Source: an uncultured Planctomycetia bacterium
GTDB taxonomy: Bacteria > Omnitrophota > Gorgyraeia > Tantalellales > Tantalellaceae
Reading direction: 5' to 3'
DNA: 64,000 bases
Assembly (NCBI GenBank): GCA_964409365.1
Contig: CAYPCX010000012.1
Span: 178-64,177, forward strand
Shown: in pieces, positions 2,524 through 53,935 of the stretch
Position numbering within the stretch: position 1 is the stretch's first letter
How the letters are laid out: each line of letters starts with the position of its first letter
Translations under genes and position numbers: made by a program
Notes under the pieces: generated by a model
What the model was told of the DNA's origin: nothing
The model's input: only the letters and a program-made list of their open reading frames with translations
The model's database searches: none

Positions 2524-2561
2524 CTGTCTTCCGTCTTCCGTCTTCTGTCTTCCGTCTTCTG
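2524..2561. repeat. heptanucleotide tandem repeat (CYGTCTT x ~5) in trxB-grx spacer
   Basis: ctgtctt ccgtctt ccgtctt ctgtctt ccgtctt read directly. Confidence 0.85.
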
Positions 2562-2564
2562 TTA

Positions 2565-2801
2565 CTATAGCCCGAGGGCCTGCACGATCCTGTCCTGGTC
2601 GAAACCCACTATTATCTCTCCCTCGATATCCAGGACGGGAACACCCATCTGTCCCGACTTCTCGACCATTTCCTGGACTTTTTCCTGGTCCGCCGAGACG
2701 TCTATATCCTCGAATTCCACGTTGTTCCCCTTCAGGAACTGCTTGACCTTCAAACAGAACGGGCAGGTAGCCGTACTATACACCTTTACATTCTTCATCA
2801 C
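2565..2801 (-). CDS. glutaredoxin / NrdH-like thiol-disulfide protein
   Basis: 78 aa; CPFC active site near N-terminus, thioredoxin-fold spacing. Confidence 0.75.
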   Translation of the reverse strand: MMKNVKVYSTATCPFCLKVKQFLKGNNVEFEDIDVSADQEKVQEMVEKSGQMGVPVLDIEGEIIVGFDQDRIVQALGL

Positions 2802-3276
2802 TGCATTCCTTTCTCAGGTCCAGAAGTCTCTTAAGATGCCCTTTTTCCTCGTTAATAAGCCCCTCGACCAGGGGCCTGTCTTTTTCGGGAACGATCCTCA
2901 ATAACCCTTCGTAAAAAAGGATCGAATCTTTCTCGAACTTGATGCCGAGGTCCATGCCCTCCAGGTAGCCTCTGACATCACGGGCGATCCGGCTTCCTTT
3001 ATCCTTCTGCGTAAAGACATATTGCCGCGCGAGGGCGTTCATATAAGCAAAATACTCATCGGGGTAGGCGCCTTCGGGACTGTGTTCGCATGAAGAAGCG
3101 AATATCTTTTTGAAGATCCCGATGTGCTTTTCTTCTTCCCCGGCGAGATACCTGAAAGCTTCAGCGGCTTTTTTATTCTCGGCGCTCGCGGCAAGCTCTT
3201 TGTAAAAATCCCTGCCGTTCATCTCTATCTGGATCCCGAGCTCGACTATCTCGCATCCCGAATAATCACCGCTCAT
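2776..3276 (-). CDS. rubrerythrin-like ferritin-fold diiron protein
   Basis: 166 aa; two E...ExxH motifs (EEEKHIGIF and NEEKGHLKRL). Confidence 0.55.
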   Translation of the reverse strand: MSGDYSGCEIVELGIQIEMNGRDFYKELAASAENKKAAEAFRYLAGEEEKHIGIFKKIFASSCEHSPEGAYPDEYFAYMNALARQYVFTQKDKGSRIARDVRGYLEGMDLGIKFEKDSILFYEGLLRIVPEKDRPLVEGLINEEKGHLKRLLDLRKECSDEECKGV

Positions 3277-3297
3277 AGAACCTCCGATCCTTTGCGA

Positions 3298-3873
3298 TCA
3301 ATAGTTCTCCGCCATCACTTCATAATAGGCCCGGGGATGGGCGCATGCCGGGCATACTTCCGGGGCCTCCCGCCCCTCGTGCACATACCCGCAATTGCGG
3401 CATCTCCATTTGACGACAGCGTCCTTTTTGAACACTTTTCCTTCCTTGACGTTGGCCAGTAATTTCCGGTATCTTTTTTCGTGCTCTTCCTCTACTTCGG
3501 CTATTTCCCTGAAGACGTCAGCTATCTCGCCGAAACCCTCTTTCCTCGCCGTGCCTTCACAATCCTTGTAAATAGAGGACCATTCGAGTTTTTCGCCGTC
3601 GGCAGCATGCTCCAGGTTCTGGGCCGTGTCGCCTATGACCCCCGCCGGATACGTCGCGGTGATCTCGGCCTCCCCGCCCTCAAGGAATTTGAAGAACTTT
3701 TTCGCGTGTTCTTTTTCATTCTCAGCTGTCTCCAGAAATATGCCCGCTATCTGTTCATAACCGGATTTTTTCGCCACGCTGGCAAAATACGTATAGCGGT
3801 TCCTTGCCTGTGATTCACCCGCAAAAGAGGCAAGCAGGTTCTTTTCCGTCTGTGTGCCTTTGATACTTTTCAT
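3298..3873 (-). CDS. rbr: rubrerythrin (diiron ferritin-like domain plus C-terminal rubredoxin-like domain)
   Basis: 191 aa; ExxH pairs and C-terminal CRNCGY...CPAC. Confidence 0.9.
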   Translation of the reverse strand: MKSIKGTQTEKNLLASFAGESQARNRYTYFASVAKKSGYEQIAGIFLETAENEKEHAKKFFKFLEGGEAEITATYPAGVIGDTAQNLEHAADGEKLEWSSIYKDCEGTARKEGFGEIADVFREIAEVEEEHEKRYRKLLANVKEGKVFKKDAVVKWRCRNCGYVHEGREAPEVCPACAHPRAYYEVMAENY

Positions 3874-3889
3874 TTCCCTCCCTTTCCTT

Positions 3890-3966
3890 GATACTTGATA
3901 CTCGATACTTGATACTCTATACTCGATACTCTATACTCGATACTCGATACTTGATATTCTATACTC
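3890..3966. repeat. heptanucleotide tandem repeat GATACTY x11 between dfx and rbr (overlaps dfx stop)
   Basis: gatactt gatactc gatactt gatactc tatactc gatactc tatactc gatactc gatactt gatattc tatactc. Confidence 0.9.
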
Positions 3967-4336
3967 CCCAAAGCATATGTACATTACAAAATTCCCTTGC
4001 CTCTACGATATCTTTCTTTTCCACACAAAAGTGCGCTTCAGGTTTATCGCCCGGACGCAATTCGGCCCTTAGAACCTTTTCCTTTGTGAGTACCTCGATG
4101 AATTTGATAAAATGCTTTTCTTCCATGGGATGTTCCACACTGCCGACCTTTACCTTGACGCCGCCGGCGTCTTCCTCCACCACAGGAACATGTTTTTCCT
4201 GGCCCTGGTCCTCTGTTTTGGTTTCCAACTTGCCCATGGGCTGACCGCAGCATACGAGCGACGGCGCGCCCTCATGAGCGATTTCCACGACATTCCCGCA
4301 GATCTCACACCTGTAAAGTTCCCTTAACTGTGTCAT
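3959..4336 (-). CDS. dfx: desulfoferrodoxin (2Fe superoxide reductase)
   Basis: 125 aa; N-terminal desulforedoxin Cys motif CEICGNVV...CCGQPM, then SOR domain with H...H...C...H ligands. Confidence 0.85.
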   Translation of the reverse strand: MTQLRELYRCEICGNVVEIAHEGAPSLVCCGQPMGKLETKTEDQGQEKHVPVVEEDAGGVKVKVGSVEHPMEEKHFIKFIEVLTKEKVLRAELRPGDKPEAHFCVEKKDIVEAREFCNVHMLWGV

Positions 4337-4351
4337 GATAAGCCCCCTCTG

Positions 4352-4486
4352 TTAGACCGGCACGAACTGGTCTTTACCCACCCCGCACTCGGGGCAAACC
4401 CAGTCTTCCGCAAGATCCGCGAATTCCACACCGTCATTCTCGGCCGGATCATAGATATAACCGCAAACTTCACATTTGTACTTCAT
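4352..4486 (-). CDS. rubredoxin (not in ORF track, <60 aa)
   Basis: Hand translation: [44 protein letters not shown] (44 aa), canonical CxxCG...CPxCG. Confidence 0.8.
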
Positions 4487-4765
4487 GGCCCCTTCCTTTC
4501 TGTGACAGACAATATTTTAGGGCGGTAAGTCTTAATTATATTCCACTTCAAGCGGTGTTTCTATATTAAAGTTGGATTTTATGGGCAGTTTAACGTCATG
4601 CCCGGGACCAGGTACAGCAGCCTTCTTTACAATGCGCCACGGGGCGCAGCATATATCTGACAGTCACTTTCATCTTTCTCCTCCTTGTTTTTAATGAACA
4701 TCGATATGGCTTCAGTTATAATGATACCATTTTAGTATCATTTGTCAAGGAAAAATCATCTTTTT

Positions 4766-4797
4766 TAACCCCCGGGGGTTAACCCCCGGGGGTTAAA
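4766..4797. repeat. palindromic direct repeat ttaacccccgggggttaa x2 downstream of tlpA-like gene (hairpin, possible terminator)
   Basis: Self-complementary CCCCCGGGGG units duplicated; U-tract not ideally placed for minus strand. Confidence 0.5.
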
Positions 4798-4801
4798 CGG
4801 G

Positions 4802-5299
4802 TTAAATAAGGTCTCGGATGGCGTCCTCAAAAAATGCCTTATCGCGGTAACCTGTGGCTTTTTGTGTTATGATCCCCTTGCGGTCGATAATGAACGTGGT
4901 GGGAATGCCTCTGATGCCGCCGTAAGCGGACGTCACGTTCTGGTCCCCTATAAGCACCTTATAGTTTATACCGTTCGCGGCGGCGAAGGATTTCACCGCC
5001 GATACCCCGCCGCGGTCCAGCGCGACGCCTATAACCTGAAGTCCTCTCGAGCCGTATTCATCCTGCAGGGCTACGAAGTGAGGTATCTCCATCCTGCAGG
5101 GCGGGCACCACGTAGCCCAGAAATCCAGTATCACCACTTTCCCCCTGGTGTCAGCAAGACTGTAAGGATCACCGCTTAAGTCCCTGAGGGTAAAGTCCGG
5201 GGCCTTCGACCCCACCTCTCCCGAAGCGGTCTGGGCCTGGCACGATATCAGACTGATAAGAGCGAACGAACACAGAAGAACGAACAGGGTCTTTCTCAT
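4802..5299 (-). CDS. TlpA/ResA-like thiol-disulfide oxidoreductase lipoprotein
   Basis: WATWCPPC thioredoxin motif; signal peptide with lipobox LISC; start chosen at internal ATG (MRKTLFVLL) with cat at 5297..5299. Confidence 0.75.
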   Translation of the reverse strand: MRKTLFVLLCSFALISLISCQAQTASGEVGSKAPDFTLRDLSGDPYSLADTRGKVVILDFWATWCPPCRMEIPHFVALQDEYGSRGLQVIGVALDRGGVSAVKSFAAANGINYKVLIGDQNVTSAYGGIRGIPTTFIIDRKGIITQKATGYRDKAFFEDAIRDLI

Positions 5300-5312
5300 G
5301 ATCTCTCCTTTA

Positions 5313-6041
5313 TTATTTGGCGAATTTATAAAAAGACTGCGGCATGTACTGAAGCAGCACGCCAAGATTATCGGTAAATATGAGCACCCCTACGGCTATA
5401 AGGAAAAGGCCTGCTATGATCTCCCCCCACCTGATGAACTTCCTGTATCTTTCGAAAAACTTCATAAAGACGCCGACAGCGAACCCCGTGACAACAAAAG
5501 GTATACCCAGACCGAGAGAATATACTAAAAGGAGGAGCATCCCTTTGACCACCGTCTCCTGGGTGGCGGCCAGGGCCAGTATCCCGGCCAGGATAGGCCC
5601 GACGCAGGGCGTCCAGCCGAAAGCGAAAGCAAGGCCTATAATAAAAGCGCCAAAATATCCGGGTGAAAAATTCTTGACCTTTAGTTGCTTCTGATAATTC
5701 AGCCACCCTACCCTCAGCACCCCCAGAAGGTGCAGACCCAAGAGGACTATGACCACTCCGGCTATCTTTGTGAAAATGTGTATATGATCGATCAGGAGTT
5801 TCCCGATGAAAGAAGCCGAAGCCCCCAGAGCGACAAAGACCAGCGAGAAACCCAGGACGAAAAAAATGGAAGTGAAGCCCGCTTTCTTGACGGCGCTCTT
5901 AGGGGCGCCCCCCTGCCTAAGCTCTTCCAGCGATATCCCGGAAAGGAATGAAATATATCCGGGAACAAGGGGCAAAATACAGGGAGAAAGAAAAGAAAGT
6001 ACGCCGGCTAGAAACGCGACTCCAAAAGAAACCTGTTCCAT
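5313..6041 (-). CDS. ccdA: cytochrome c-type biogenesis / disulfide-relay membrane protein CcdA (DsbD family)
   Basis: 242 aa polytopic; conserved Cys in TM1 (LSPCILP) and TM4 (WTPCVGP). Confidence 0.85.
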   Translation of the reverse strand: MEQVSFGVAFLAGVLSFLSPCILPLVPGYISFLSGISLEELRQGGAPKSAVKKAGFTSIFFVLGFSLVFVALGASASFIGKLLIDHIHIFTKIAGVVIVLLGLHLLGVLRVGWLNYQKQLKVKNFSPGYFGAFIIGLAFAFGWTPCVGPILAGILALAATQETVVKGMLLLLVYSLGLGIPFVVTGFAVGVFMKFFERYRKFIRWGEIIAGLFLIAVGVLIFTDNLGVLLQYMPQSFYKFAK

Positions 6042-6081
6042 GAGCTAATTATAAGATAATCCGGCGATGTTTGCAAAAAAA

Positions 6082-6120
6082 GATACAAAAAAAGACCGCC
6101 CGGGGATAACCCCGGGCGAT
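6082..6120 (-). terminator. rho-independent terminator after gdhA
   Basis: Hairpin cgcccgggg ataa ccccgggcg followed on minus strand by U-run (plus A-run 6082-6093). Confidence 0.7.
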
Positions 6121-6145
6121 CTTCGCATTCTCCTGGACCAAAAGG

Positions 6146-7534
<1,389 letters not shown>

Positions 7535-7588
7535 CTATTTAAACATATTTCAGGCAAATGTCTACTGCTTTTTGGTCAAAAATCTATA

Positions 7589-8871: not shown

Positions 8872-8890
8872 GGGGATTAGGGATCTTTTC

Positions 8891-9800: not shown

Positions 9801-9821
9801 GGCAAGGGCAAAGGCGCAAGG
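9801..9821. repeat. heptanucleotide tandem repeat (GGCAAGG-like x3)
   Basis: ggcaagg gcaaagg cgcaagg immediately after PEP-synthase-like stop. Confidence 0.6.
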
Positions 9822-29064: not shown

Positions 29065-30081
29065 TTAGCAGATACGGGGAAGCTGGTCAGATTCGAGCAT
29101 AGGAAGGATACGGGTCGATCCGATGCGGGTTCGGAGGCGGACTTCGCCTTTGTGGCGGGTGGTGGTACGGCCTATCAGACGGGCGCCGGGCCCCATGGCC
29201 TTTTTAACCCTGGATGCGTCTTCTTCGCTGACAAAGCAGACAAATTTCCCTTCATTCGCAACATACAGCGGATCAAAGCCCAGGACGTCGCAGAGTTTCC
29301 CGACGGCGGGCTTCACGGGGATATCCTTTTCAGATATTTCAATACCGATGTTCGATGACCGGGCTATCTCATTAAGCGTAGTGGCGAGTCCCCCTCTTGT
29401 GGGATCGCGCATAACGCTGATCTTTTCCGACGCCTTAAGACATTTTTGTGCTTCAAAATTCACATTTGCGCAGTCGCTTTTTATGGGGGGTTTAAACCCG
29501 AGGTCCTCTCTCGCGTTCAATATTGCCATACCATGCTCGGCTATACCGCCGTTTATAAGCACAAGGTCGCCGCTTTTCGGTTTGACGCCAACGCCCTTTC
29601 CTTTCTCTATCACACCTATGCCTGAAGTGTTGATGAACATCCCGTCACAGGCGCCTTGTTCGACGACCTTGATGTCACCTGTCACGACCTTAACATTTGC
29701 TTCCCGAGCGGCCTGCTTTATCGAGGAAGCGACCCTTCCAAGCACGGAGAACTCAAGCCCTTCTTCCAGGATGAACGCAAGCGACAAATAAAGAGGACGC
29801 GCGCCTTTCATGGATATATCGTTCACGGTCCCGCAAACGGCAAGTTTGCCTATGTCGCCGCCGGGAAAGAAAAGCGGTTTCACCACGTAGGAATCGGTAC
29901 TGAAAGCGAGGCGCTCCGCGTCCACCCTCAGTTCTGCGGCATCCGCCATCTCGTCGAGGATCCTGTTAGAGAACTTCAGACGCATATCCTCGACCAGCTC
30001 ATGCATGAGCTTCCCGCCGTTCCCATGCGCAAGAGTTATTGTCTTCCCTGAGACCTGAGACCTGAGACCTGAGACCTTCAT
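29065..30081 (-). CDS. hypE: hydrogenase maturation protein HypE
   Basis: 338 aa; PurM-like fold motifs, C-terminal conserved ...PRIC; coding N-terminus carries GGTCTCA heptamer repeats. Confidence 0.9.
   Translation of the reverse strand: MKVSGLRSQVSGKTITLAHGNGGKLMHELVEDMRLKFSNRILDEMADAAELRVDAERLAFSTDSYVVKPLFFPGGDIGKLAVCGTVNDISMKGARPLYLSLAFILEEGLEFSVLGRVASSIKQAAREANVKVVTGDIKVVEQGACDGMFINTSGIGVIEKGKGVGVKPKSGDLVLINGGIAEHGMAILNAREDLGFKPPIKSDCANVNFEAQKCLKASEKISVMRDPTRGGLATTLNEIARSSNIGIEISEKDIPVKPAVGKLCDVLGFDPLYVANEGKFVCFVSEEDASRVKKAMGPGARLIGRTTTRHKGEVRLRTRIGSTRILPMLESDQLPRIC
30050..30077. repeat. heptanucleotide tandem repeat GAGACCT x4 inside the first codons of hypE
   Basis: gagacct x4 directly after the ATG; encodes VSGLRSQVSG. 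Confidence 0.85.
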
Positions 30082-31482: not shown

Positions 31483-31572
31483 TGGTGTCCGCGCGAAGCG
31501 CGGACGAGCGAGGGAATTGTCGAGACCGATTCCCTCGCTGGGGAAATCGGTCGTCCCTGCGAGAGGCAGTTA
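31483..31572. repeat. ~90 bp palindromic repeat element, copy 1 (hairpin gtccgcgcgaagcgcggac + gagcgagggaat..attccctcgctgggg + atcggtcgtccctgcgag)
   Basis: ~85% identical to 32684..32771; internal inverted repeats. Confidence 0.8.
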
Positions 31573-32637
31573 AGATACCCAGTGACAAGCCACGAAATAC
31601 TGCCCCATCGCGATATTCAGGTCGTTCACCGGATTTGACCTGTTAATGAAAGTTTGATATCCCGCTCCTATCAAATCCCTGAGCGCTCTTTCCTTCAGGT
31701 ACCCGTTCTGGAACACGCCTCCGCTGAGCGCGATATCCCTTACGCCCGTCTTCTTTGACAATTTCTTCACGACCTCCACGATAATATTCCCCATGGAATT
31801 ATGGAACCTGGCCGCTATGATCTTCTTACTTTTTCCCCTACCCATATCCCGTACCATACCGCGAAAAAGGCCGTCTGTCCCGATCACGCACATACCGTTC
31901 TCCCTGGATATGTCAAAGGGATATGAACCCTCTTCTTTCTTATCGCACATCGCCTCGAGCTTTATCGGACCTTCTGATTCACGTGAAGCATGCGTACAGA
32001 TCCCTAAAAGAGCCGCGGCGGCGTCAAAGAGGCGTCCCGCGCTCGATGTGAGCGGCGAGTTGATCTCTTTTGACATCATTTCTAACACAAGACCTTTTTG
32101 TTTTCTACTGACGCCCTTGACCATCTTCGCCCCGCCGGGACCCAGCACGCTGAGCACCATTCTCCAGGGCTCGGATACTGCTTTATCTCCGCCGGGCATC
32201 ATGCGGTATTTCAGGTGAGCGAGCCGCTTAAAACCCTTTTTGTCCACAAGAAGGAACTCCCCTCCCCATATGTTGCCGTCAGTGCCATAACCGGTACCAT
32301 CGAAGGAAACACCTATAACGGGACCTTTAAGGGAGTATTCCTCCATCACGCTTGCAATATGAGCGTGGTGATGCTGCACGGGAAGTATCGAGTATCGGGT
32401 ATCGAGTATCGAGAGTTCCTTGGCAAACCGTGTGGAAAAATAAGCGGGGTGCAGGTCACATGCTATAACACCGGGGCTTACCTTTCCGGCCGCCTTGCGG
32501 ACTTGGCGCCTAAAGCGCTCATAGTTCTCCGCATCGCCCAGGTCCCCCATCTCGGGGCCGGCTTTAAAGCTCTTCCCCTCCGCGAGAAGAAACCTGTTCT
32601 TTATATCCGCTCCTAATGCGAGTATTGTCTTACTCAT
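31570..32637 (-). CDS. hypF: HypF C-terminal (Kae1/YgjD-like carbamoyltransferase) domain protein; acylphosphatase, Zn-finger and YrdC domains absent
   Basis: 355 aa from ATG 32637; ACDLHPAYFST...VQHHHAHIASV metal-binding motif; ORF-track N-terminal extension is translation of the repeat element. Confidence 0.7.
   Translation of the reverse strand: MSKTILALGADIKNRFLLAEGKSFKAGPEMGDLGDAENYERFRRQVRKAAGKVSPGVIACDLHPAYFSTRFAKELSILDTRYSILPVQHHHAHIASVMEEYSLKGPVIGVSFDGTGYGTDGNIWGGEFLLVDKKGFKRLAHLKYRMMPGGDKAVSEPWRMVLSVLGPGGAKMVKGVSRKQKGLVLEMMSKEINSPLTSSAGRLFDAAAALLGICTHASRESEGPIKLEAMCDKKEEGSYPFDISRENGMCVIGTDGLFRGMVRDMGRGKSKKIIAARFHNSMGNIIVEVVKKLSKKTGVRDIALSGGVFQNGYLKERALRDLIGAGYQTFINRSNPVNDLNIAMGQYFVACHWVS
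32385..32412. repeat. heptanucleotide tandem repeat (GATACTC, minus orientation) x4 embedded in hypF coding sequence
   Basis: gtatcga gtatcgg gtatcga gtatcga; encodes SILDTRYSIL just upstream of the HHHAH motif. Confidence 0.85.
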
Positions 32638-32683: not shown

Positions 32684-32771
32684 CCCGAGGGCCAAAGGCC
32701 CGAGGGGGAGCGAGGGAATGACAGAGGCCGATTCCCTCGCTGGGGGGATCGGCCGTCCCTGCGAGGACAGC
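32684..32771. repeat. ~90 bp palindromic repeat element, copy 2 (between truncated hypA and hypF fragment)
   Basis: gagcgagggaatgacagaggccgattccctcgctggggggatcggccgtccctgcgag; preceded by gggccaaaggccc hairpin. Confidence 0.8.
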
Positions 32772-32789: not shown

Positions 32790-33032
32790 TCATTCTATAT
32801 CAAATGACAATACCTGGATTATCGTTCCCGGGAACATGGTTATCTCGAGGTCCGCCCCTTCAAGAAGAGTTCCCTTAGCCAGGACGGAAAAGGTTTCTTT
32901 GAAAGAATCCTCTTTCACACCTGTTAATTCCCCGACCTTGAGTTTCACGTTGGTGACCTTCTTGCCGCCTTCTTTCTCCGTATGCTCGGCTATACCCTTT
33001 ATGATAGGCTCTATAAGATGTGTCTCATGCAT
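32790..33032 (-). CDS. hypA: HypA-like N-terminal fragment (MHE Ni-site retained, Zn-finger CxxC...CxxC missing); probably truncated
   Basis: 80 aa MHETHLIEPI...LEGADLEI aligns to the HypA N-terminal half; no cysteines, stop 18 bp before repeat copy 2; no Zn finger in any downstream frame. Confidence 0.5.
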   Translation of the reverse strand: MHETHLIEPIIKGIAEHTEKEGGKKVTNVKLKVGELTGVKEDSFKETFSVLAKGTLLEGADLEITMFPGTIIQVLSFDIE

Positions 33033-33054
33033 TTTTTGCCTCCTTAAAAATTAA

Positions 33055-33162
33055 ATGGTACGACAAACAGTAACCAGAAACCAGTTTCCAGTCCAGTTAC
33101 TGGTTACCGGTTACTGGTCACTTGTTACTCTATCCTTTTTCCTTTATCCTTGTTACTGTTCA
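33055..33162. repeat. heptamer-periodic repeat block (AACCAGW / GTTACYG / TATCCTT units) between protease gene and hypA, overlapping protease stop
   Basis: gttactg gttaccg gttactg gtcactt gttactc tatcctt tttcctt tatcctt gttactg ttcactg gttactt; includes palindromes aaaccagttt and ccagttactgg. Confidence 0.8.
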
Positions 33163-33617
33163 CTGGTTACTTTTTTAATCGCCGCCACGATCTCTCCAAG
33201 CGCCTTTTTCACGCTATCCGACATCTCTTCCCCGAATGCCACGTTACCCGGCTGCACCGCGAGCATGTAGATATCGGCTTTTGTTTCTTGCTCAAGGTAT
33301 TCAATGGCCATGACCGGTGAAAGGTCATGCGTGGTAAAACCCGACCTCACTATTTCGTCCTTATGCAGTATATCGTATGTCCCCGGGGCGGCATCCATAT
33401 GGACCGCATCGGCTATTATCACGGTATCCGGCTTCTCCCTGGCTATCTTGCCCAGGTAATTTTCCGGGGCGCTGCCGGCATCGATGCATATAAGGTGTCC
33501 TTCACCGGCAAGTATTTCCGCCAGCCGGGGGCCGAAGGCATCATCCCCCTTAAGGATGTTGCCTACACCCAGAAGAACGGTCTTCCCTTTAATAATCTTA
33601 TTAAAGATATTATCCAT
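33153..33617 (-). CDS. hydrogenase maturation endopeptidase (HycI/HybD family)
   Basis: 154 aa; GVGNILKGDDAFG metal-binding motif and conserved downstream H. Confidence 0.85.
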   Translation of the reverse strand: MDNIFNKIIKGKTVLLGVGNILKGDDAFGPRLAEILAGEGHLICIDAGSAPENYLGKIAREKPDTVIIADAVHMDAAPGTYDILHKDEIVRSGFTTHDLSPVMAIEYLEQETKADIYMLAVQPGNVAFGEEMSDSVKKALGEIVAAIKKVTSEQ

Positions 33618-39986: not shown

Positions 39987-41158
39987 ATCTTCTTCCTGAT
40001 ATCCTCTGTCTTTTTCTGGGAGAGCTTTACGAGATCCTCTCCACCGTAAAGTTTTTTGCCCTTCGAGTCACGGACGGCCACCCTCTCGGTGCAACAATAG
40101 CACGGGTCTATGGCTGCCAGGATTATGGTCGCGTCCGATATCGTCTCACCGACCACGGTCGCTTTATAGGTCGGGAGGTTCATGAAGGTCGGGGCCCTTA
40201 CCTTATGCCTCGCGGGGCTGTTGGTGCCGTCGCTCTTCACATAATGGAACGTTTCACCTCTGGGCGCTTCGATATGCCCTATGCCTTCTCCCGGAGGCAC
40301 GTTCTTGAGATTAAGGTCTATATCCCCCGCCGGGAGGTTCTCAAGGCAATATTTCATTATCTTGTGCGATTCCAGCATCTCAAGCACCCTCACGATGACC
40401 TTGTCATAGACGTCACCGTTCTCGGCCACTATCATGTCCCATTCTACCCGGTCATAGACCCCATAAGGAGAATCCTTCCTGACGTCCCTGGCAACGCCTG
40501 AGGCACGCGACGTCGGCCCGAGTGCGCAATAATCGATAGCTTCTTCCTTAGTAAGTATACCCACGCCCTTGGTCCTGGCATGCAGCACAGGATCGTCCGT
40601 TACCGCCTTTCTGAGCATATCCAGCGTCGGGACTATGGAATCGATCTTCTTCACACACACCGGTATATCCTCTTCCTTGAAGTCCCTTCTTACTCCGCCC
40701 GGCTTGAACATCGCATAGTTGTTCCTGTTACCGGAAAGTATCTCCATGACATCCAGGATCTCTTCGCGGAGCTTCCATGCCCACATGTAGACGGTGTTAT
40801 ATCCAAGGAAATGTCCCGCCAGGCCCAGCCACAAAAGGTGCGAGTGGATCCTTTCCCCCTCGGCTATAACTGTTCTGATGAACTTCGCCCGATCCGGCAC
40901 TTCAACGGGGAATATATCCTCGACCGCCCTCGTGTACGCGAAAGGATGGCTCGTCGAACATATGCCGCAGATCCTTTCTATAACGAACGTTGACTGGTCA
41001 AAGCTTTTCATCTCGGAAAGCTTCTCTATACCCCTGTGGTTATATCCCACCTGCATGTCTATATCGACGACCTTCTCACCTTCCACCGTGAGGGTGAAAA
41101 ACTCCGGCTCTTCCTGGAGCGGATGGTACGGTCCTATTGGTACTATTGTCTTAGCCAT
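39983..41158 (-). CDS. group-4 (energy-converting) [NiFe] hydrogenase large subunit, NuoD-like
   Basis: 391 aa; N-terminal RICGICSTSH (L1), C-terminal DPCYCCTER (L2), then 31-aa C-terminal extension for protease cleavage. Confidence 0.9.
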   Translation of the reverse strand: MAKTIVPIGPYHPLQEEPEFFTLTVEGEKVVDIDMQVGYNHRGIEKLSEMKSFDQSTFVIERICGICSTSHPFAYTRAVEDIFPVEVPDRAKFIRTVIAEGERIHSHLLWLGLAGHFLGYNTVYMWAWKLREEILDVMEILSGNRNNYAMFKPGGVRRDFKEEDIPVCVKKIDSIVPTLDMLRKAVTDDPVLHARTKGVGILTKEEAIDYCALGPTSRASGVARDVRKDSPYGVYDRVEWDMIVAENGDVYDKVIVRVLEMLESHKIMKYCLENLPAGDIDLNLKNVPPGEGIGHIEAPRGETFHYVKSDGTNSPARHKVRAPTFMNLPTYKATVVGETISDATIILAAIDPCYCCTERVAVRDSKGKKLYGGEDLVKLSQKKTEDIRKKI

Positions 41159-41163
41159 GTCAG

Positions 41164-41191
41164 TTCTTAGTTCTTAGTTATTAGTTCAGAG
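41164..41191. repeat. heptanucleotide tandem repeat TTCTTAG x4 between nuoC-like and large-subunit genes
   Basis: ttcttag ttcttag ttattag ttcagag. Confidence 0.85.
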
Positions 41192-41206
41192 TCAAATATT
41201 TCAAAA

Positions 41207-42123: not shown

Positions 42124-43047
42124 CTATTTTCCAAAATAAGCCAAGACTACCGCCCCGACAGCCAGGACCGTCATCGGTCCCCAGAAGAATTTTACGGCCT
42201 GGTCTATCCTGAGACGCGGGTTAGTATTGCGTATTACCGTTATCAACGCCACAAGCAGCACATATTTAAGGATGCCGTACAAGAGATGTATACCGTCAAA
42301 CCGCAAGCCTCCCATGTAAAGTATCATCAGGAAAAAAGGCAGCGTGAAAAGGAGCATGTTCTTGGTCAGTCGGAACATGGCGAGGGCCGTTCCCGAATAT
42401 TCTATCAGCGCGCCGCCCGAGATCTCGGTCTCCGCCTCCGGTATATCGAACGGCACCAACGCGAGTTTCGCCTGGACGCTCATGAGCGCCACGACCAGGG
42501 CTATGAACCCCGACAGGCTCCCTACCACTACTCCATTCTGCGCCTGCGCGCCGAGTATCTCGCCTATCCTTATGGAATACCCCGACTTGATCACTGGCAC
42601 CATCACCGCGAACACGAAAGGCAGTTCGTACGCTAATATCAGTTTCATCTCGCGCGAGGCGCCGATACTCGCCAGGGGGTTGGCCGAAGCGAAACCGCCC
42701 ATTATTATGCTCATAGAAGGTATCGTCAAAAGATAGATGGCCACTATTATATCGCCCACAAACCCCTGGCCTAACCTGATATCGTTGATCCAGAGCAGGG
42801 TCGAGACCAGGACCACACTGCTAAAGCCCACTACCGGCGCCATTAAAAAGGTCGTCCTGGAAGCCCCCGCGGGCACAAGCGTTTCCTTTCCGAGAAGTTT
42901 TATTATATCGATCAACGGCTGAAGGAGCGGAGGTCCCACCCTGTACTGCACGCGGGCCGTGACCTTCCGGTCTATCCAGCTCGCCAGAAGTCCTATGACC
43001 GCGGTCAGGAAAAACCCGAAAAATATAAGGTAAAAAATATATATCAT
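42124..43047 (-). CDS. NuoH-like membrane subunit (MbhM/EchB/HycD-like)
   Basis: ~307 aa from ATG 43047 (MIYIFYL); 8 TM; ORF-track extension MGYGPWTVDEK is translation of heptamer repeats. Confidence 0.8.
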   Translation of the reverse strand: MIYIFYLIFFGFFLTAVIGLLASWIDRKVTARVQYRVGPPLLQPLIDIIKLLGKETLVPAGASRTTFLMAPVVGFSSVVLVSTLLWINDIRLGQGFVGDIIVAIYLLTIPSMSIIMGGFASANPLASIGASREMKLILAYELPFVFAVMVPVIKSGYSIRIGEILGAQAQNGVVVGSLSGFIALVVALMSVQAKLALVPFDIPEAETEISGGALIEYSGTALAMFRLTKNMLLFTLPFFLMILYMGGLRFDGIHLLYGILKYVLLVALITVIRNTNPRLRIDQAVKFFWGPMTVLAVGAVVLAYFGK

Positions 43048-43053
43048 CTTCTC

Positions 43054-43109
43054 GTCCACGGTCCACGGTCCATAGCCCACGGTTGACAGTGGACTATGGT
43101 CTGTGGACT
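43054..43109. repeat. heptamer-periodic tandem repeat (GTCCACG-like x8) upstream of nuoH-like start
   Basis: gtccacg gtccacg gtccata gcccacg gttgaca gtggact atggtct gtggact. Confidence 0.8.
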
Positions 43110-43135
43110 GAACTCCGTACCCGTTAATTTCATTC

Positions 43136-48284: not shown

Positions 48285-51017
48285 TTATTCCATGACCAAT
48301 TCCCCGCCCTGGGACCAGGTACCGCCGCCGACACCGTGGAAAGTGCCGTTGTCGTCGTTATACGTGCCCCCCGCTTCCCCGGAGATATTCACGTTCTCGC
48401 TGGGCATGTTACCGCTCACGAGGGCGTGCCACTGACCGTCCGACCACTGGTCACCGGAAAGGGTGACGTTATGGCCGCTCGCGTTGTCGATCGTGAGGGA
48501 CCACGTGTCGGTGATCGCGCCTGAGTGCGTGCCGTGGATATAGCCTGCCCATATATTGTTCAGGGAGTTGCTGTAAAGATTGATGCCCATGCTGGCGGAC
48601 ATATTGGCGTTGGCGCCGGACAGCACCGAAGAGTAGGCTTCGGTGATGGGGACCGAGACAAAACTCTCGAACTCGGATATCGTGAAACCCAGGTTCGCTT
48701 CCGTGAGGAGGTCGGTGACATCGAACCATTCGCCGCCGCCGACGGCTTCCCACGTGAATGACAGTTCGCAATAATCGCCGACCACGTCCCCGTGAAAGAT
48801 GTGACCCGCGTGGACGACGCCTTCACCGTCATCATCAAAAAAATAACCGAGCATCGTACCGCTCATGCCTCCCAAATTCCACTCGTTACCGTTGATAGTG
48901 CCTAACCAGGGAGAACTGCCTCCTTCTCCCGGATCCTGATGCATACCTCCTATGGCAAGCTTCCAGTCATCGTCAGTCACCGGCGTGAACGAGCCCACCC
49001 CGTTCATGAACCATATACCCCACCGTTCTCCCTGAAGGCTCAGGGTCTCACCACTGAGATCAGTGCAAACGACCGAACCGCCGAGGCCACCCGCGAAACC
49101 GCCCATGCCCGATCCGCCGTAGAGATCGCCTGTCTCCTTAGGCGCGGAATCAAGCTGGTCCGGGGTTATGCCTACCATACTCCTCGGTGAGAACCAGACA
49201 GGGAAGTTGCCTACGCTGTTGAAGTGCCCCGGACTGACATCTCCTTCATAAAGGGCCGAGAAAGTGCCGCCATGGCCCGTGGTATCCACGTATATCCCGA
49301 GCGCTTTACCCTTAAGACGGGTACCTATCATCGTCCCGCCGGTACGCCCTATCATCCTGCCGCCGTCCGAAGCGGTGTAGGCGATGTTATCACATCCCCA
49401 TAGACGGTCAAGCCCTTTACCGATAAACAACCCGTGCACGTCGTTCCCGCTCGGGGAAAACCCCGCCCACATGCCGCCCGCCCCGGGGACCGAAAAAGCG
49501 AGACTCCCCACAACGTGGCTGTCGGAATTCATGACAAAATTTAAGTCGCTTTCGCCTTCATACCCTATATACCCGAAATGTCCGGTAAAATTAGCGGCTT
49601 CTTCCGGCGGTGGCGGTGGCGGGAGAAGGCCGCCTAAAATAGTAGCGATAGGTACGCCGACAATAGTACCACCGGGAAGGTCCTCCGGAAGTAAGTTGCC
49701 TATAGGAGGAAGTACACCCGGCGGCAGAGGACGCGTAGCCAGAGGGCTCCGAAGACCGGTCCCGCTACTGTAATTGGTCATAGCGACACCCTGGCTCCAG
49801 AATTCCTCGAGGGTTATTCTGTCCTTGACGGTGGTATAAACGGGCGTTCCGAGGTTACCCGCGGAATTGGCCGTGGAATTCTGTCCGGGATCCAGCACCA
49901 CCATATCGCCGGAGACGAGGCTTGTCATATCCCCCTGCCCGCCTTCATACCAGGCCTGTGTCCACCCCTCGGTTATATCAAGGTACATCACTGTCCCTCT
50001 CACGCCGCATACGGCGGACGGGGTCTTCACACGGAACGTGGACTTCTTGCCGAGCCTTTCCACTATGGCCCTTATCTTTCCCCTGTCCGCCTCGAATGAA
50101 TTCTCATATTCCCCGGTCTTCGGGTCGTGGCGTATGCGCTTCATGAATATCTCGGAATTCGCCTGGAGCGAAAGCATATTGCCGTTCTCCATGGTTATTT
50201 CCACGCCGCCGTCGGGGCCGGTCATCACTTTGTCGCCTTCCGTGAGGACCTCATCTATCTTCGCCAGACGGAACTTTTTATTACCGTGCTTGTAAACGCG
50301 TACCTCTCCCTGGACCGAGGTTATGAGGCCCTTCATCTTCCTTACACCCTTGCCCTCGAGCGTGTCCCTGGACATCTGGCTCGGCTTGGTGTCCTTTTCA
50401 TGCGCCGAGAACTCCGCGTCGACGTACGGGCGCGGTTTATCCGGAATGTCGCTTAAGGGTATCGTGACAAAATCGCCTTTGCTTAATTTCGTCACGTCAT
50501 CGGGATAGGCCGGGTTATACACCGATATCTGGCCGTCCTTCACAAAGACGCCGGTCTTGTCCGCCTGGTGGAAAGCCACGATATCGGTGCCCTTTACCGT
50601 GCCTTTGGCGCTGGGGGTCACGATGTGGAAGTTGGAAGTGCCTCCGTTCTTGGAAACGATCGCCCGCATCTTCCCGCGGTATAACCTTACGGTCGCGTTC
50701 TGTCTTTTGTTCCCGTCCTTGATGTCATATTCTTCGATGGCGACACGGGAATTCGGGGCGAGCCGGAGAACCGTACCGTCCTTAAAGGTGACCTCTGCCC
50801 TGGAATTGCTCTTTGTCCTTATGACGTCACGGAGAAAGACCGGTTCCTCTTTTTTGACGCGGGAAGCCGTGTCCTCTTCCAAACGGGTAACGTCTATCCT
50901 TCCCTCCAGGGACGTATATGTCCCCACTTCCGTTCCATCCGCGAAACAAACGGCGGAAAGAAAGACGGACATTATCAACAGAAATAGTATCTTCTTCATT
51001 ATTATTTTAGTCCTCAA
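48285..51017 (-). CDS. large secreted protein with two FecR-like domains and a Gly-rich C-terminal region
   Basis: 910 aa; signal peptide; FecR-like beta segments (AEVTFKDGTVLRLAPNSRVAI and GEVRVYKHG...TGPDGGVEITMENGNMLSLQANS). Confidence 0.45.
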   Translation of the reverse strand: MRTKIIMKKILFLLIMSVFLSAVCFADGTEVGTYTSLEGRIDVTRLEEDTASRVKKEEPVFLRDVIRTKSNSRAEVTFKDGTVLRLAPNSRVAIEEYDIKDGNKRQNATVRLYRGKMRAIVSKNGGTSNFHIVTPSAKGTVKGTDIVAFHQADKTGVFVKDGQISVYNPAYPDDVTKLSKGDFVTIPLSDIPDKPRPYVDAEFSAHEKDTKPSQMSRDTLEGKGVRKMKGLITSVQGEVRVYKHGNKKFRLAKIDEVLTEGDKVMTGPDGGVEITMENGNMLSLQANSEIFMKRIRHDPKTGEYENSFEADRGKIRAIVERLGKKSTFRVKTPSAVCGVRGTVMYLDITEGWTQAWYEGGQGDMTSLVSGDMVVLDPGQNSTANSAGNLGTPVYTTVKDRITLEEFWSQGVAMTNYSSGTGLRSPLATRPLPPGVLPPIGNLLPEDLPGGTIVGVPIATILGGLLPPPPPPEEAANFTGHFGYIGYEGESDLNFVMNSDSHVVGSLAFSVPGAGGMWAGFSPSGNDVHGLFIGKGLDRLWGCDNIAYTASDGGRMIGRTGGTMIGTRLKGKALGIYVDTTGHGGTFSALYEGDVSPGHFNSVGNFPVWFSPRSMVGITPDQLDSAPKETGDLYGGSGMGGFAGGLGGSVVCTDLSGETLSLQGERWGIWFMNGVGSFTPVTDDDWKLAIGGMHQDPGEGGSSPWLGTINGNEWNLGGMSGTMLGYFFDDDGEGVVHAGHIFHGDVVGDYCELSFTWEAVGGGEWFDVTDLLTEANLGFTISEFESFVSVPITEAYSSVLSGANANMSASMGINLYSNSLNNIWAGYIHGTHSGAITDTWSLTIDNASGHNVTLSGDQWSDGQWHALVSGNMPSENVNISGEAGGTYNDDNGTFHGVGGGTWSQGGELVME

Positions 51018-51022
51018 GACCG

Positions 51023-52549
51023 TTAAAACTTATACTTCATCCCTACGCTATAAACGTTCCGTTTATAGTTATACACTTTAATATTGCAAGAGTCGTATAC
51101 GTGTATATAGTTTAGCATAATTTCAACATTTTTTACAATATCAAAAGCGAGAAAAGTGGACAAAGTCAGAATGTCGTCCCTGCGTTGCTGCTTAAAGATA
51201 AAATTGGTCTCCGTGAACCTCTGAAAAAAAAGGTCCAGCGTACCCCCTATCCTCATTTTTTCCATGATCGGCACGGTAGCACCCAGTGTGATCTTGTTAC
51301 CTATATATCTCCAATTGTCTTCTTCGGTATCGTCGTAATTCAGGGCATATTTCAGGTAAGCGATACCCTTACCCTCGCCGAAAAAGTAGAACCATGCAAG
51401 ATGCCCCGTATACTCGTCGGAATCCCTGTCTTCCTCGGGGCCGTTGGGAGACCACAGGAATTTATCTTTATTATAGAACATGCCGAGCTGGCCCATCACA
51501 TTCCTGCCCAGTTTGATATTATCCAGGTTGCCTATACTGACAGTGGAAAGGTATCCCTTATCATTGACGGTGACAAAGTTGTAATAGATCGGGAAGCTGA
51601 TAGCCGCGTTCTCGAGATAAAAAGCCGGCTGTGTAGTGAAATTGTGGGACGTCATGTCATAGAAACCCAGGTCGAACTGCTTGGCCAGGTAGAACGAATA
51701 CCCGAATTTCGCGCCGAAGTTCTCCCAGGGCTTCAGGTTATATTCACCGTTGAAGGTGTAAACCTGCCGCCAATCACCTTTGTCCCCGATGGCCGACACC
51801 AGGACATCGCTCCCCGGCGACAGGACGACGTTATCGTCATACTGCAGGGCGAAACCGACATTCCCGCGGAAGGGTCTTGTGGCTTCCTCTTTCTTGTCTA
51901 TGGCGGCGATATATTCATCGGCGAAACCGGCAAGATCGCTGTGCGGAGCCTCTTTCACGACGTCGCCGAAGATCTTCTTCGCCTCTTTCAGCCTTTCGTT
52001 CTTCACGTACGCCAGGCCGATATAATACTCAAGCGTCTGGTACGGCGCCCCGTCTATCCCCTTCGCTTCCTCGAAGGACTCTATCGCCGTATCAAGGTCC
52101 TCCCCCTCTTTCAGATAGACCATGCCTTTGAAAAAAGAGGTCTGGGCCGGGTTTATCCCTTCGTCTTCCGCCAGCTTGATCCACTTTTTTGCCTCGTCCA
52201 GCTCGCCCTTCTTGTAAAGAAGGTCTATGAGTTCCGTAAGCGCGTTCTTTATCCTTGGCTTCATCATCACGGCGGCTTCCAGATAAGACCTGGCCTCATC
52301 ATAGTTCTGCATTTGTTTGCAGGTAACACCGAGATAATAGGCGACGAGGGTCGACTGGGGCCTTTCCTTCCATAGCCTCTTCAAAAGGTCATAGGCCTCT
52401 TCGTAATCCTCGTGCTTGTAAAGCCATATGGCCTTCGTCAGCTGTTCGTCCCCTTTGGCATCGAGTTCGTCGGAAAAGACCTGCGGCACGCAGAAAATAC
52501 CCGCGAACAGTGAGAGAACCGTGAAAATGATAATTACTTTGGTTTTCAT
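51023..52549 (-). CDS. TPR-repeat protein with C-terminal beta-barrel-like domain (outer membrane?)
   Basis: 508 aa; signal peptide; N-terminal TPR helices; C-terminal alternating strands ending ...GMKYKF. Confidence 0.4.
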   Translation of the reverse strand: MKTKVIIIFTVLSLFAGIFCVPQVFSDELDAKGDEQLTKAIWLYKHEDYEEAYDLLKRLWKERPQSTLVAYYLGVTCKQMQNYDEARSYLEAAVMMKPRIKNALTELIDLLYKKGELDEAKKWIKLAEDEGINPAQTSFFKGMVYLKEGEDLDTAIESFEEAKGIDGAPYQTLEYYIGLAYVKNERLKEAKKIFGDVVKEAPHSDLAGFADEYIAAIDKKEEATRPFRGNVGFALQYDDNVVLSPGSDVLVSAIGDKGDWRQVYTFNGEYNLKPWENFGAKFGYSFYLAKQFDLGFYDMTSHNFTTQPAFYLENAAISFPIYYNFVTVNDKGYLSTVSIGNLDNIKLGRNVMGQLGMFYNKDKFLWSPNGPEEDRDSDEYTGHLAWFYFFGEGKGIAYLKYALNYDDTEEDNWRYIGNKITLGATVPIMEKMRIGGTLDLFFQRFTETNFIFKQQRRDDILTLSTFLAFDIVKNVEIMLNYIHVYDSCNIKVYNYKRNVYSVGMKYKF

Positions 52550-52644
52550 GATTTATAACTTATAATACAAAACCCCACACGTGTCAAGAATATTTCCCCC
52601 TGTACAACCCCGGGGGTTGAACCCTTGCCAAACCCCACCGTATT

Positions 52645-52677
52645 TATACATCGGGTGTATTATACACCCGATGTATA
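52645..52677. repeat. 30-bp perfect palindrome tatacatcgggtgtattatacacccgatgtata (copy 1)
   Basis: Identical core at 56239..56270. Confidence 0.85.
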
Positions 52678-53748
52678 TGCGGTGAGGCGTTTGAAGGCTT
52701 TAAGCTTTTCGGAGCGGCCGATCTTTGCCCTGGAGACGGCGTCATTGAGGAAAGAGATGGTACCGTCATAAACAGAACGGTTTACGGGATATGGGTGGCC
52801 GTCCTTTCCGCCATGGGCGAAACTGAACCTTGCCGGGTCGCGTAAGCTCGGTTTTTCGCCGTAGACAAGCTCGGATATGAGGGCCAGAGCCCTTATCGTC
52901 CTGGGGCCGACGCCCTGTATGCCCAGGAGCTCTTCGAAGTTCCCGGGTCTTTTTTCATACGTGGAAAGCAGTATCTTTTTCAGGTTCTCCGGCCTTATTT
53001 CCTTGCCGCGGATATCATGATGAGCGGGGAGCGATAATTTTTCAACGCGCCTGTACTCTTCCAGGACCTTTTCCGGGTTCACGCGGGAGATCTCAACGCT
53101 GACTTCCCTCGCCTTTTCGCTTTCCCGGGCGACCATATTGAGGACCTCTCCCTTGTGGTCACAGCATACCGCGTTATGCGGCTCGCACACGAAATCATTC
53201 ACGCTTTCGCCGAGCCAGTGGTAACGCCTCGCCCACCGGGTCCGGTCGTTCATACCCTGCTGGACCACGGCCCAGCGGCCGCTTTTGTCGACGATGAAAG
53301 TATGATGATATAACTGGTACCCGTCCTGGACGGCGGTATTATCCACTTTCGCCGACATGCGGCTCGCGTAGACCAAACCGGCAGGATCGCGATCTATGAA
53401 CCGTTTCTCGGCGAGTTCTTCTATCTCCGAGGGGGTTTTTCTCGATGTTCCGCCCTTCCCGCCGCAGACGAACACACCCATGTCCCGGCCCGCATTCTTA
53501 AGCCCGGCCTTGAGCGCGCCGCAGACCGTAGTAGTGAGTCCCGATGAATGCCAGTCAAAACCCAGGACACACCCGAATGCCTGGAACCAGAAAGGATCCG
53601 CCATCCTTCTCAAGTACTCTTCGGACCCTAATTCACCGCACAGGATCATGCTTATCTCTCTCGCGAGAAGCGTCATCCTGTCGAAAAGCCACCTCGGGGC
53701 TTTCCCGCCGTGAAGGGGTAAATGCGCAGTGCCTGTTTTTCTGGACAT
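52660..53748 (-). CDS. conserved hypothetical protein (DUF763-like, with HhH motif)
   Basis: 362 aa; N-terminal TGxAHLPLHGGKAPRWLF pattern typical of archaeal/bacterial DUF763; GIQGVGPRTIRAL HhH. Confidence 0.4.
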   Translation of the reverse strand: MSRKTGTAHLPLHGGKAPRWLFDRMTLLAREISMILCGELGSEEYLRRMADPFWFQAFGCVLGFDWHSSGLTTTVCGALKAGLKNAGRDMGVFVCGGKGGTSRKTPSEIEELAEKRFIDRDPAGLVYASRMSAKVDNTAVQDGYQLYHHTFIVDKSGRWAVVQQGMNDRTRWARRYHWLGESVNDFVCEPHNAVCCDHKGEVLNMVARESEKAREVSVEISRVNPEKVLEEYRRVEKLSLPAHHDIRGKEIRPENLKKILLSTYEKRPGNFEELLGIQGVGPRTIRALALISELVYGEKPSLRDPARFSFAHGGKDGHPYPVNRSVYDGTISFLNDAVSRAKIGRSEKLKAFKRLTAYTSGV

Positions 53749-53762
53749 ATGACAGGTATTAC

Positions 53763-53935
53763 AGTTACTGGTTACTCCAAAAGTAACCCGTTTCAGATAA
53801 GTCTGGTTACTGTTTACTGGCTACTGGTTACGACACTTGATACTTGCTATTTTTCCTTGTTACTTTTTCCTTTTTCCTTGATACTTCTTCCTTTTTCCTT
53901 GATACTTGTCACTTGTTGCTACTTACTGGTTACTC
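53763..53935. repeat. heptamer-periodic repeat block (GTTACTG, CCTTGAT/ACTTCTT/CCTTTTT units) between DUF763 gene and sufBD
   Basis: gttactg gttactc ... gttactg tttactg gctactg gttacga; 21-mer ttcctttttccttgatacttc x2. Confidence 0.8.

Follow-up and report, generated by a model that had tools for sequence, protein, structure and literature searches.

Tandem heptanucleotide arrays in operon spacers and at in-frame coding sites of an Omnitrophota genome segment

Heptanucleotide arrays in the window

The DNA analyzed here, referred to as the window, is a 64-kb stretch (GC content 0.52) of contig CAYPCX010000012.1 from assembly GCA_964409365.1, deposited as an uncultured Planctomycetia bacterium and placed by GTDB in Omnitrophota. 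Its subject is a set of tandem arrays of 7-nt units, most of which occupy the spacers between co-directional genes for oxidative stress response, hydrogenases and their maturation, and Suf proteins. The minus strand is the coding strand for nearly every gene in the window; all arrays described below are assigned to it, and their units are given in mRNA sense. An earlier note, made from the sequence alone, had listed ten such sites and suggested that changes in copy number might act as a contingency or translational-coupling mechanism. We regard the arrays as probably being long simple sequence repeats that slippage produced and that are tolerated where sites are permissive.

Tandem Repeats Finder (TRF) returned 13 rows of period 7 in the window, together with overlapping rows at periods 14, 21 and 28, and nearly all rows at periods other than multiples of 7 were chance-level matches of two to three copies. 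A stricter lag scan of periods 2 to 20 yielded five arrays of period 7 and none at any other period, with one array at period 21, and the same scan applied to 20 dinucleotide-preserving shuffles of the window yielded none. For the window, the enrichment check suggested in the earlier note came out in favor of period 7. Period 7, 14 or 21 was found in 11 of the 13 non-overlapping arrays. In all, the arrays cover about 600 nt, of which 87% is non-coding, and account for about 15% of the non-coding DNA, which itself constitutes about 6% of the window. The arrays are a real, non-random feature of this DNA. They display the properties of heptanucleotide long simple sequence repeats (LSSRs): by TRF and by comparison with shuffles they are head-to-tail repeats of units in the 5-11 nt range, longer than expected by chance; period 7 predominates, both in the window (11/13, with periods 14 and 21 included) and in related Omnitrophota loci (35/64); and units that are not a multiple of three are concentrated in non-coding DNA, the two coding arrays keeping the reading frame.

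TRF supported nine of the ten sites listed earlier, the tenth (9801-9821) consisting of three imperfect units that score below 30, and added the 4.3-copy array at 55764-55793, which had not been listed. The constant 7-nt period, the mostly co-directional flanking genes and the close contact of arrays with start and stop codons were likewise borne out. The intercistronic position ascribed to all of them holds for most, but the array at 30047-30077 lies in the hypE reading frame and that at 32384-32413 in the HypF coding sequence, and these two are therefore not intercistronic. That the unit sequences differ is correct in so far as many units are in use; nevertheless, GAGTATC/AAGTATC, CAGTAAC and AAGGAAA recur across loci, being shared among the arrays at 3890, 32384 (on the opposite strand), 33055-33162 and 53763-53935.

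Arrays in operon spacers

According to Pfam, the gene pairs at the arrays are glutaredoxin and a thioredoxin-reductase-like gene, desulfoferrodoxin and rubrerythrin, HypD and HypE, HycI and HypA, Complex1_30kDa and the [NiFe]-hydrogenase large subunit, ferredoxin and a NuoH-like gene, SufBD and DUF763, and a PBP-family gene and SufC; one more array lies inside HypF, in its Kae1-like half. The flanking genes are housekeeping ones.

The direct array at 2524-2561 contains about five copies of GGAAGAC/AGAAGAC (TRF 2526-2559, 4.9 copies, 92% matches) and takes up 38 nt of the 50-nt spacer that runs from the glutaredoxin stop codon to the thioredoxin-reductase-like ATG at 2514, which is not preceded by a Shine-Dalgarno (SD) motif; its RNA is predicted to be unstructured (-2.5 kcal/mol). 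At 3890-3966, 11 direct copies of GAGTATC, AAGTATC and GAGTATA are arranged with a 21-nt super-period (TRF score 118 at period 21 and 105 at period 7). The desulfoferrodoxin (dfx) stop codon at 3959-3961 lies within the first units, an SD (GGAGG) and the rubrerythrin ATG at 3873 follow downstream, and the predicted RNA fold has a z-score of +0.5.

A composite block at 33055-33171 occupies the hycI/hypA spacer, which in the closest relatives measures about 7 nt. Its direct CAGTAAC/AAGTGAC and AAGGAWA units (TRF 33096-33129 and 33131-33151) overlap the hycI stop codon at 33153-33155, and the block also contains an inverted CAGTAAC/GTTACTG pair predicted to form a hairpin, followed by an SD (AGGAGG) and by the hypA ATG at 33032. 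The direct AAGAACT/CTAAGAA array at 41162-41191, of about four copies (TRF 41162-41187, 3.7 copies), ends 3 nt short of the ATG of the [NiFe]-hydrogenase large subunit at 41158, again in the absence of an SD; the orthologous spacer is 2-11 nt long in relatives, and locus L089 has an AAAAAAC array in it.

The array at 43054-43109 (TRF 43054-43083, 4.3 copies), which ends 6 nt short of the NuoH-like ATG at 43047, had been read as eight direct copies. It is actually an inverted pair, in which three to four AGTCCAC-type units are followed by three to four inverted CGTGGAC units in a hairpin arrangement, and the same layout is found at 62416-62530 and in part of 33033-33152. The largest block, of about 24 units, fills the sufD/DUF763 spacer at 53763-53935 (TRF 53803-53831 and 53850-53900) and combines CAGTAAC, AAGTATC, AAGTGAC and AAGGAAA/AAGGAAG units with a 21-nt super-period, TRF super-periods of 14, 21 and 28 nt spanning 53836-53914. 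In the direct GGATGTT-type array at 55764-55793, the PBP-family stop codon falls within the first unit, and GAGG and the sufC ATG at 55751 lie downstream. As with this gene, the stop codons of dfx and hycI are located inside the first repeat unit of their respective arrays. Finally, a weak TTCGAAT-type array with an inverted arm at 62440-62517 (TRF 62490-62517, 4.0 copies, score 35) forms a predicted hairpin in the 5′ region of a PGA_cap-family gene with its ATG at 62415.

If the array is subtracted, each spacer measures 8-32 nt, as is usual for this operon-dense window. The orthologous spacers of the closest relatives, which share about 80% amino-acid identity, measure approximately 2-18 nt and are mostly array-free, indicating that the arrays of the window are lineage-specific expansions in compact spacers. 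An SD is present in four of the nine genes preceded by an array and absent from five, which is about the same proportion as in array-free genes. In genes that have an SD, the array is located on its upstream side, and copy number therefore leaves the distance between SD and start codon unchanged; the SD/start-spacing mechanism proposed in the earlier note is not supported by these two observations.

Arrays within conserved coding sequences

The array at 30047-30077 is a perfect AGGTCTC repeat of 4.4 copies (TRF, 100% matches) in the hypE reading frame. It begins one base after the ATG at 30081, the sole start codon that keeps the conserved ITLAHGNGG N-terminus, and it adds seven N-terminal residues (+21 nt) in comparison with the hypD-hypE junction of 29 Omnitrophota loci. 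The array can be described as one ancestral-looking copy plus three more in frame, and removal of three copies (21 nt) restores the N-terminal length seen in the 29 related loci. Among the arrays, only that of hypE would shift the reading frame upon gain or loss of one copy, so that the frame-shifting effect which the note had attributed to heptamers in general applies to hypE and to no other array. Public gene calls for hypE (29065-30081) use an internal methionine, yielding a protein of 313 aa that is 25 residues short and lacks ITLAHGNGG, apparently because of the repeat.

The second coding array, at 32384-32413, comprises 4.3 copies (TRF) of the mRNA-sense unit GATACTC, which corresponds to the GAGTATC unit of the array at 3890 read as its reverse complement. 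It encodes LSILDTRYSIL, in a loop of HypF located between the DLHP..YFST motif and VQHHHAH. A heptamer-periodic loop in the same position was also found in five other Omnitrophota loci (L006, L007, L008, L014 and L016), with a decayed form in L018, and, with different units, in six Anaerolineae loci (L029, L037, L052, L055, L057 and L058). The mean self-identity of the loop at lag 7 is 0.36 in Omnitrophota, 0.59 in Chloroflexota and 0.25 in other phyla, and lag 7 alone stands out, all other lags giving about 0.2-0.3. On a neighbor-joining tree of HypF, the array-bearing Omnitrophota fall at no fewer than three separate points. Most Omnitrophota have a loop of 12 residues, whether periodic or not, which simple 21-nt expansion does not explain.

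The HypF of the window (31570-32637) consists of the Kae1-like C-terminal half only, 355 aa from the ATG at 32637, and a 407-aa open reading frame (ORF) call carries 52 extra residues that look out of frame. The adjacent HypA (32790-33032) has only 80 residues and is devoid of the zinc-binding insert. Full-length matches to both the short HypA and the short HypF occur throughout the Omnitrophota loci. The Anaerolineae HypF at L057 (5467-7932, 821 aa) contains at least four in-frame heptamer or hairpin arrays in a single conserved protein. They occupy the N-terminus, the region that follows the zinc fingers, the loop preceding VQHHHAH and a site close to the C-terminus. The VSGFKFQ-type insertions of this HypF are shared with L029 and L052.

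Predicted RNA structure and strand composition

Direct arrays are predicted to be unstructured in RNA: the 145-nt segment at 53800-53944 folds at -3.7 kcal/mol, compared with -14.4 kcal/mol for its shuffles (z = +3.9), and 41159-41206 has a predicted fold of 0 kcal/mol. Inverted pairs, by contrast, are predicted to form strong hairpins, namely at 33033-33152 (-36 kcal/mol, z = -4.1), 43040-43135 (-34.4 kcal/mol, z = -3.7) and 62416-62530 (-30.4 kcal/mol, z = -2.6). The inverted-pair design is also seen at L021 from Omnitrophota (z = -5.4) and L057 from Anaerolineae (z = -8.5), and in the L021 hairpin the unit variants are mirrored between both arms. Sense-strand composition leans toward A: 30 arrays have more A than T, and 10 have more T than A.

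The three hairpins of the window are unrelated in sequence, unlike the dispersed copies of palindromic elements such as repetitive extragenic palindromes (REP) or miniature inverted-repeat transposable elements (MITE), which have a conserved sequence in common. Consensus scans for promoters and terminators did not call the array hairpins as intrinsic terminators and gave counts close to shuffle expectation, and a search of the whole window against Rfam at the gathering threshold produced no match.

Period 7 in relatives and in other phyla

The loci nearest to the window by HypE among GTDB genomes belong to Candidatus Omnitrophota metagenome-assembled genomes, with identity not exceeding 76%, which agrees with the opinion of the earlier note that the host is not a cyanobacterium. 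For comparison we used 29 Omnitrophota loci, 12 Chloroflexota loci (mostly Anaerolineae), loci from other phyla, and 80 metagenome loci retrieved as relatives of one window protein, the lineage of which is presumed. Arrays of period 7 number 35 out of 64 in Omnitrophota, 45 out of 79 in Chloroflexota and 61 out of 135 in the presumed-relative metagenome loci, whereas Ignavibacteria/Bacteroidota have only 6 out of 35 and other phyla 5 out of 32. The excess of period 7 is lineage-specific within the phyla sampled, in agreement with the patchy heptanucleotide distribution which PMC4679880 and PMC4692102 attribute to Mrazek et al. (2007). A secondary excess of period 8 (9, 11 and 16 arrays per set) was seen in the period-7-rich Omnitrophota and Chloroflexota sets (L001-L058, L089-L168), an example being an in-frame array of three 8-nt units at the hypE start in L006.

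Several junctions, namely mnhG/fer4, c30/hydL, hypC/hypD and hypD/hypE, contain arrays with different units in other Omnitrophota, so that one and the same spacer may carry different units in different genomes. Single-linkage clustering of the units chained all of them into one and gave no grouping.

Copy number and length change

The genome of the window could be found in five public data sets through exact-protein look-ups: ENA ERZ27256770, JGI 3300017987 and 3300029258, and Logan SRR14699967 and SRR6963311. A public metagenome contig is essentially identical to the window, with one mismatch in 21 kb. A variable-gap pattern search for further alleles of the hypE array gave no hits among JGI metagenome contigs, in a collection from which this near-identical contig appears to be absent. 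An exact-protein look-up with the gene at 534-1175 found no match. One recombined segment aside, the five assemblies show about 0-2 substitutions each (per 10-20 kb) relative to the window and are therefore near-clonal. They contain no indels in any of the arrays covered, and a collection of 15 billion proteins has no length variants of HypF (±7 residues) at the array. The earlier note had called for copy numbers to be compared across metagenomic reads or strains; among five near-clonal assemblies this comparison revealed no polymorphism.

Other lineages do exhibit length change: after removal of duplicates, eight intergenic arrays were informative, and five of them have changed in length between relatives whose flanks are 89-99% identical. 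Four of these differ by -15, -1, -1 and a complex +3, and in the fifth an entire 31-nt array is either present or absent. In the comparison of L124 with L094 (89% flank identity), a degenerate 4.6-copy array corresponds to a single T. The length changes reflect deletion from one repeat unit to another and, in one case, an array gained or lost in its entirety, indicating that the arrays are moderately dynamic over evolutionary time. They show no sign of a fast switch and do not behave as hypermutable ones.

In a pooled comparison of orthologs the arrays at first looked better conserved than the sequences flanking them, but this was dropped once duplicates had been removed: redundant pairs and T-rich coding “arrays”, the N-terminus of NuoH among them, had produced the signal. 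Two contigs of Logan SRR14699967, L082 and L084, terminate exactly at arrays (2526 and 30048). The break at 30048 fits a de Bruijn node with a second predecessor if reads with five or more copies exist, but may instead be an assembler artefact.

Relation to known repeat systems

The arrays of the window likely belong to the heptanucleotide class already described in bacteria, for which Omnitrophota would be a new lineage. As cited in PMC4679880 and PMC4692102, Mrazek et al. (2007) found heptanucleotides to be the most abundant class of long simple sequence repeats in many prokaryotes, with a patchy distribution, and proposed polymerase slippage as the explanation. Intergenic heptamer arrays are known in Beggiatoaceae, Bacteroidetes, Xanthomonas and Nostoc (PMC4679880, PMC4692102), and the association with heterocystous cyanobacteria made in the earlier note was too narrow. 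As far as LSSRs are described in these two papers, the likeness extends to varied tandem 7-nt units, dominance of heptamers, patchy phylogeny, the intergenic location of units that are not a multiple of three, and an origin by slippage. Measured against the same descriptions, the present arrays differ in lineage (Omnitrophota and Anaerolineae), in the many hairpin-forming inverted pairs, and in that several are in frame within conserved proteins. Our literature searches returned no report of heptamer repeats in Omnitrophota or Anaerolineae.

In layout, the arrays parallel the TAACTGA arrays of marine Beggiatoaceae, some cyanobacteria and Bacteroidetes, which MacGregor (2015) found just upstream of start codons, overlapping stop codons, often without an SD and occasionally in ORFs (PMC4679880). 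Like ours, they have 2-6 copies and are mostly intergenic, near starts and often overlapping stops, the SD is often missing, and the few copies in ORFs are peripheral (PMC4679880). That system, however, has one dominant unit in forward orientation, whereas the window has many units and its hairpin pairs are common. TAACTGA itself occurs in the 64 kb as one single copy and never in tandem.

Rehm (2015) described GGGAATC and GGGGAYT arrays between co-directional ORFs (PMC4692102). These and the cyanobacterial short tandemly repeated repetitive (STRR) sequences share with the window arrays the heptamer unit, the position between co-directional ORFs, no more than about 50 nt away from starts or stops, and transcription as part of operons; their units, however, are G-rich, form G-quadruplexes and prefer four copies (PMC4692102), whereas those of the window have no G-tracts. 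The STRR1-3 units CCCCAGT, TTGGTCA and CAACAGT are never tandem in the window, where single copies occur at chance level, and with Candidatus Omnitrophota as the nearest loci the host is not a heterocystous cyanobacterium. An identity with G-quadruplex repeats is ruled out by the unit sequences, and neither GGGAATC nor any other published unit considered here, GGGGAYT and ATCTTTC included, is ever tandem in the window.

The (ATCTTTC)n repeats of Haemophilus influenzae hmw1A/hmw2A are similar in being heptamers in a transcribed 5′ leader that form part of a long hairpin, but they have at least 11 copies, are hypervariable, precede a surface adhesin and depend on RNase III (PMC12721329), whereas the window arrays adjoin housekeeping genes and show no copy-number variation in the five near-clonal assemblies.

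Origin of the arrays

The origin that we favor, LSSR formation by slippage with retention at permissive sites, would begin with slipped-strand mispairing between short direct repeats at a spacing of 7 nt; the arrays would then have expanded, acquired point mutations and occasionally undergone inverted duplication. They would persist only where extra sequence is tolerated, that is, in the gap of a few nucleotides that separates a stop codon from the ribosome-binding site or start codon of the following gene, or, in coding DNA, in surface loops and at protein N-termini, in steps of 21 nt. Any effects are probably side effects. The arrays lengthen compact operon spacers from about 8-32 nt to 40-196 nt, which should weaken stop-start translational coupling, and expression might be affected in that way; direct arrays would add an unstructured A-rich leader, and inverted pairs a stable hairpin with a possible role in protecting or punctuating the mRNA.

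Several observations weigh against this account. Slippage gives no reason for a unit length of 7 nt. GAGTATC occurs at two loci in the window and also in L115, L124 and L017, and CAGTAAC is accompanied by AAGGAAA at two window loci; units common to several loci or genomes are not predicted by purely local seeding. The HypF loop carries arrays in Anaerolineae and in no fewer than three independent lineages of Omnitrophota, its length being constant in Omnitrophota. In addition, the excess of A and the predicted lack of structure in the longest direct array (z = +3.9) could reflect selection at the RNA level. The shared units, the A excess and the regularity of the HypF loop, each drawn from small samples, may keep a functional or mechanistic reading alive.

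One such reading, which we think unlikely on balance, takes the arrays for cis-acting RNA elements that set the relative expression of neighboring cistrons, as was proposed for the TAACTGA repeats of Beggiatoaceae. Direct arrays would serve as unstructured A-rich platforms for ribosomes or for an RNA-binding protein (S1, Csp or CsrA-like), and hairpin arrays as stabilizers or processing sites. It would account for the termination of arrays 3-16 nt before start codons or SD motifs, for the missing SD in at least four downstream genes, for the bias of 30 to 10 toward A on the sense strand, and for the predicted opposition between unstructured direct arrays (z = +3.9) and structured inverted pairs (z = -3.7 to -4.1, with -5.4 in L021 and -8.5 in L057). 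Unit families common to several loci and genomes are consistent with it, as is the parallel in layout to the repeats of PMC4679880. Nevertheless, no single sequence-specific binder fits units that vary so widely, the same spacers are array-free in the closest relatives despite a conserved operon, SD use is equal with and without arrays, Rfam has no match anywhere in the window, and arrays are also found in coding sequence and, at 32384, on the antisense strand.

A broader proposition, which we hold to be decidedly unlikely, is that the arrays of Omnitrophota and Anaerolineae, with those of cyanobacteria and Beggiatoaceae perhaps included, are either specifically written, copied or homogenized, or selected as tunable RNA spacers and hairpins. 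It would explain why arrays with different units appear at the same sites (the HypF loop, mnhG/fer4, c30/hydL and hypD/hypE), as well as the recurrence of GAGTATC and the unit-by-unit mirroring of hairpin arms. We are slightly more doubtful still of a related explanation, in which a dedicated or lineage-specific mechanism other than ordinary local slippage, such as templated insertion, array transposition or gene conversion, writes, copies or homogenizes the arrays. Shared units at unlinked loci and in different genomes would fit such a mechanism, and so would the gain or loss of a whole array (4.6 copies in L124 versus a single T in L094), the HypF loop that is constant in length and yet heptamer-periodic in several lineages, and the unit variants mirrored in hairpin arms. 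On the other hand, neither a candidate enzyme nor mobile-element features (terminal repeats or target duplications) are seen around the arrays, proto-repeats such as AGGTCTCAGG suffice to seed slippage, deletion from one repeat unit to another explains the length changes observed, and shared units form only a small sample.

It is highly improbable that the arrays are contingency loci or rheostats in which frequent gain or loss of 7-nt units switches hypE on and off by frameshift or tunes genes through 5′ untranslated region (5′-UTR) length as in H. influenzae hmw1A: although one AGGTCTC copy more or less in the first codons of hypE would break the frame, making this the only array with the placement of a phase-variable repeat (in the 5′ coding region, or in a promoter or 5′-UTR, so as to alter expression), although the contig ends at 2526 and 30048 are what a longer allele in a minority of reads would produce, and although a heptameric 5′-UTR repeat can be a true rheostat, as hmw1A demonstrates (PMC12721329), there are no array indels across the five near-clonal assemblies and no length variants at the array in the HypF protein cluster, most arrays are short and imperfect, which lowers slippage, and they lie upstream of the SD, not between SD and start, next to genes that are housekeeping and not surface or restriction genes. 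The contingency mechanism of the earlier note is not supported by the same assemblies, HypF proteins and flanking genes.

The arrays extend the unexplained excess of 7-nt tandem repeats to Omnitrophota and Anaerolineae. The conserved junctions of the group-4 hydrogenase/hyp operon and one HypF loop, which repeatedly gain arrays, provide a clean comparative system in which the origin, inversion and decay of arrays, and any effect on operon expression, could be measured. In practical terms, arrays mislead gene callers, as in hypE and in spurious ORFs, and coincide with breaks in short-read assemblies. The spurious ORFs that cross arrays in the window are on the plus strand, at 3888-4244, 33055-33270 and 53722-53985.

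Other repeats and a recombination breakpoint

A GC-rich dispersed repeat of 65 nt with internal palindromes is present at 31499-31563 and 32701-32765, the two copies being 83% identical and located on either side of the gene for the C-terminal half of HypF, in the hypA/hypF and hypF/hypC spacers. It is REP/MITE-like in appearance and unrelated to the heptamers. GC palindromes of the type TTAACCCCCGGGGG form 2.3 tandem copies at 4765-4796 and recur in inverted orientation at 52591-52624.

One 40-nt near-perfect palindrome, TATACATCGGGTGTA-TTA-TACACCCGATGTATA, is found at both 52638-52677 and 56240-56279, so that it brackets the PBP-sufC-sufD-DUF763 block. It could represent an operator or a terminator hairpin, and one Logan contig ends exactly at 56240.

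The recombined segment mentioned above, at 62860-62929, concerns the contig from JGI 3300029258, which is identical to the window over 11.4 kb, then, from 62860-62937 on, has nine clustered substitutions, and differs upstream in gene content, including a DUF190 gene. This strain-level recombination breakpoint lies next to the plus-strand ORF at 62630-63004.

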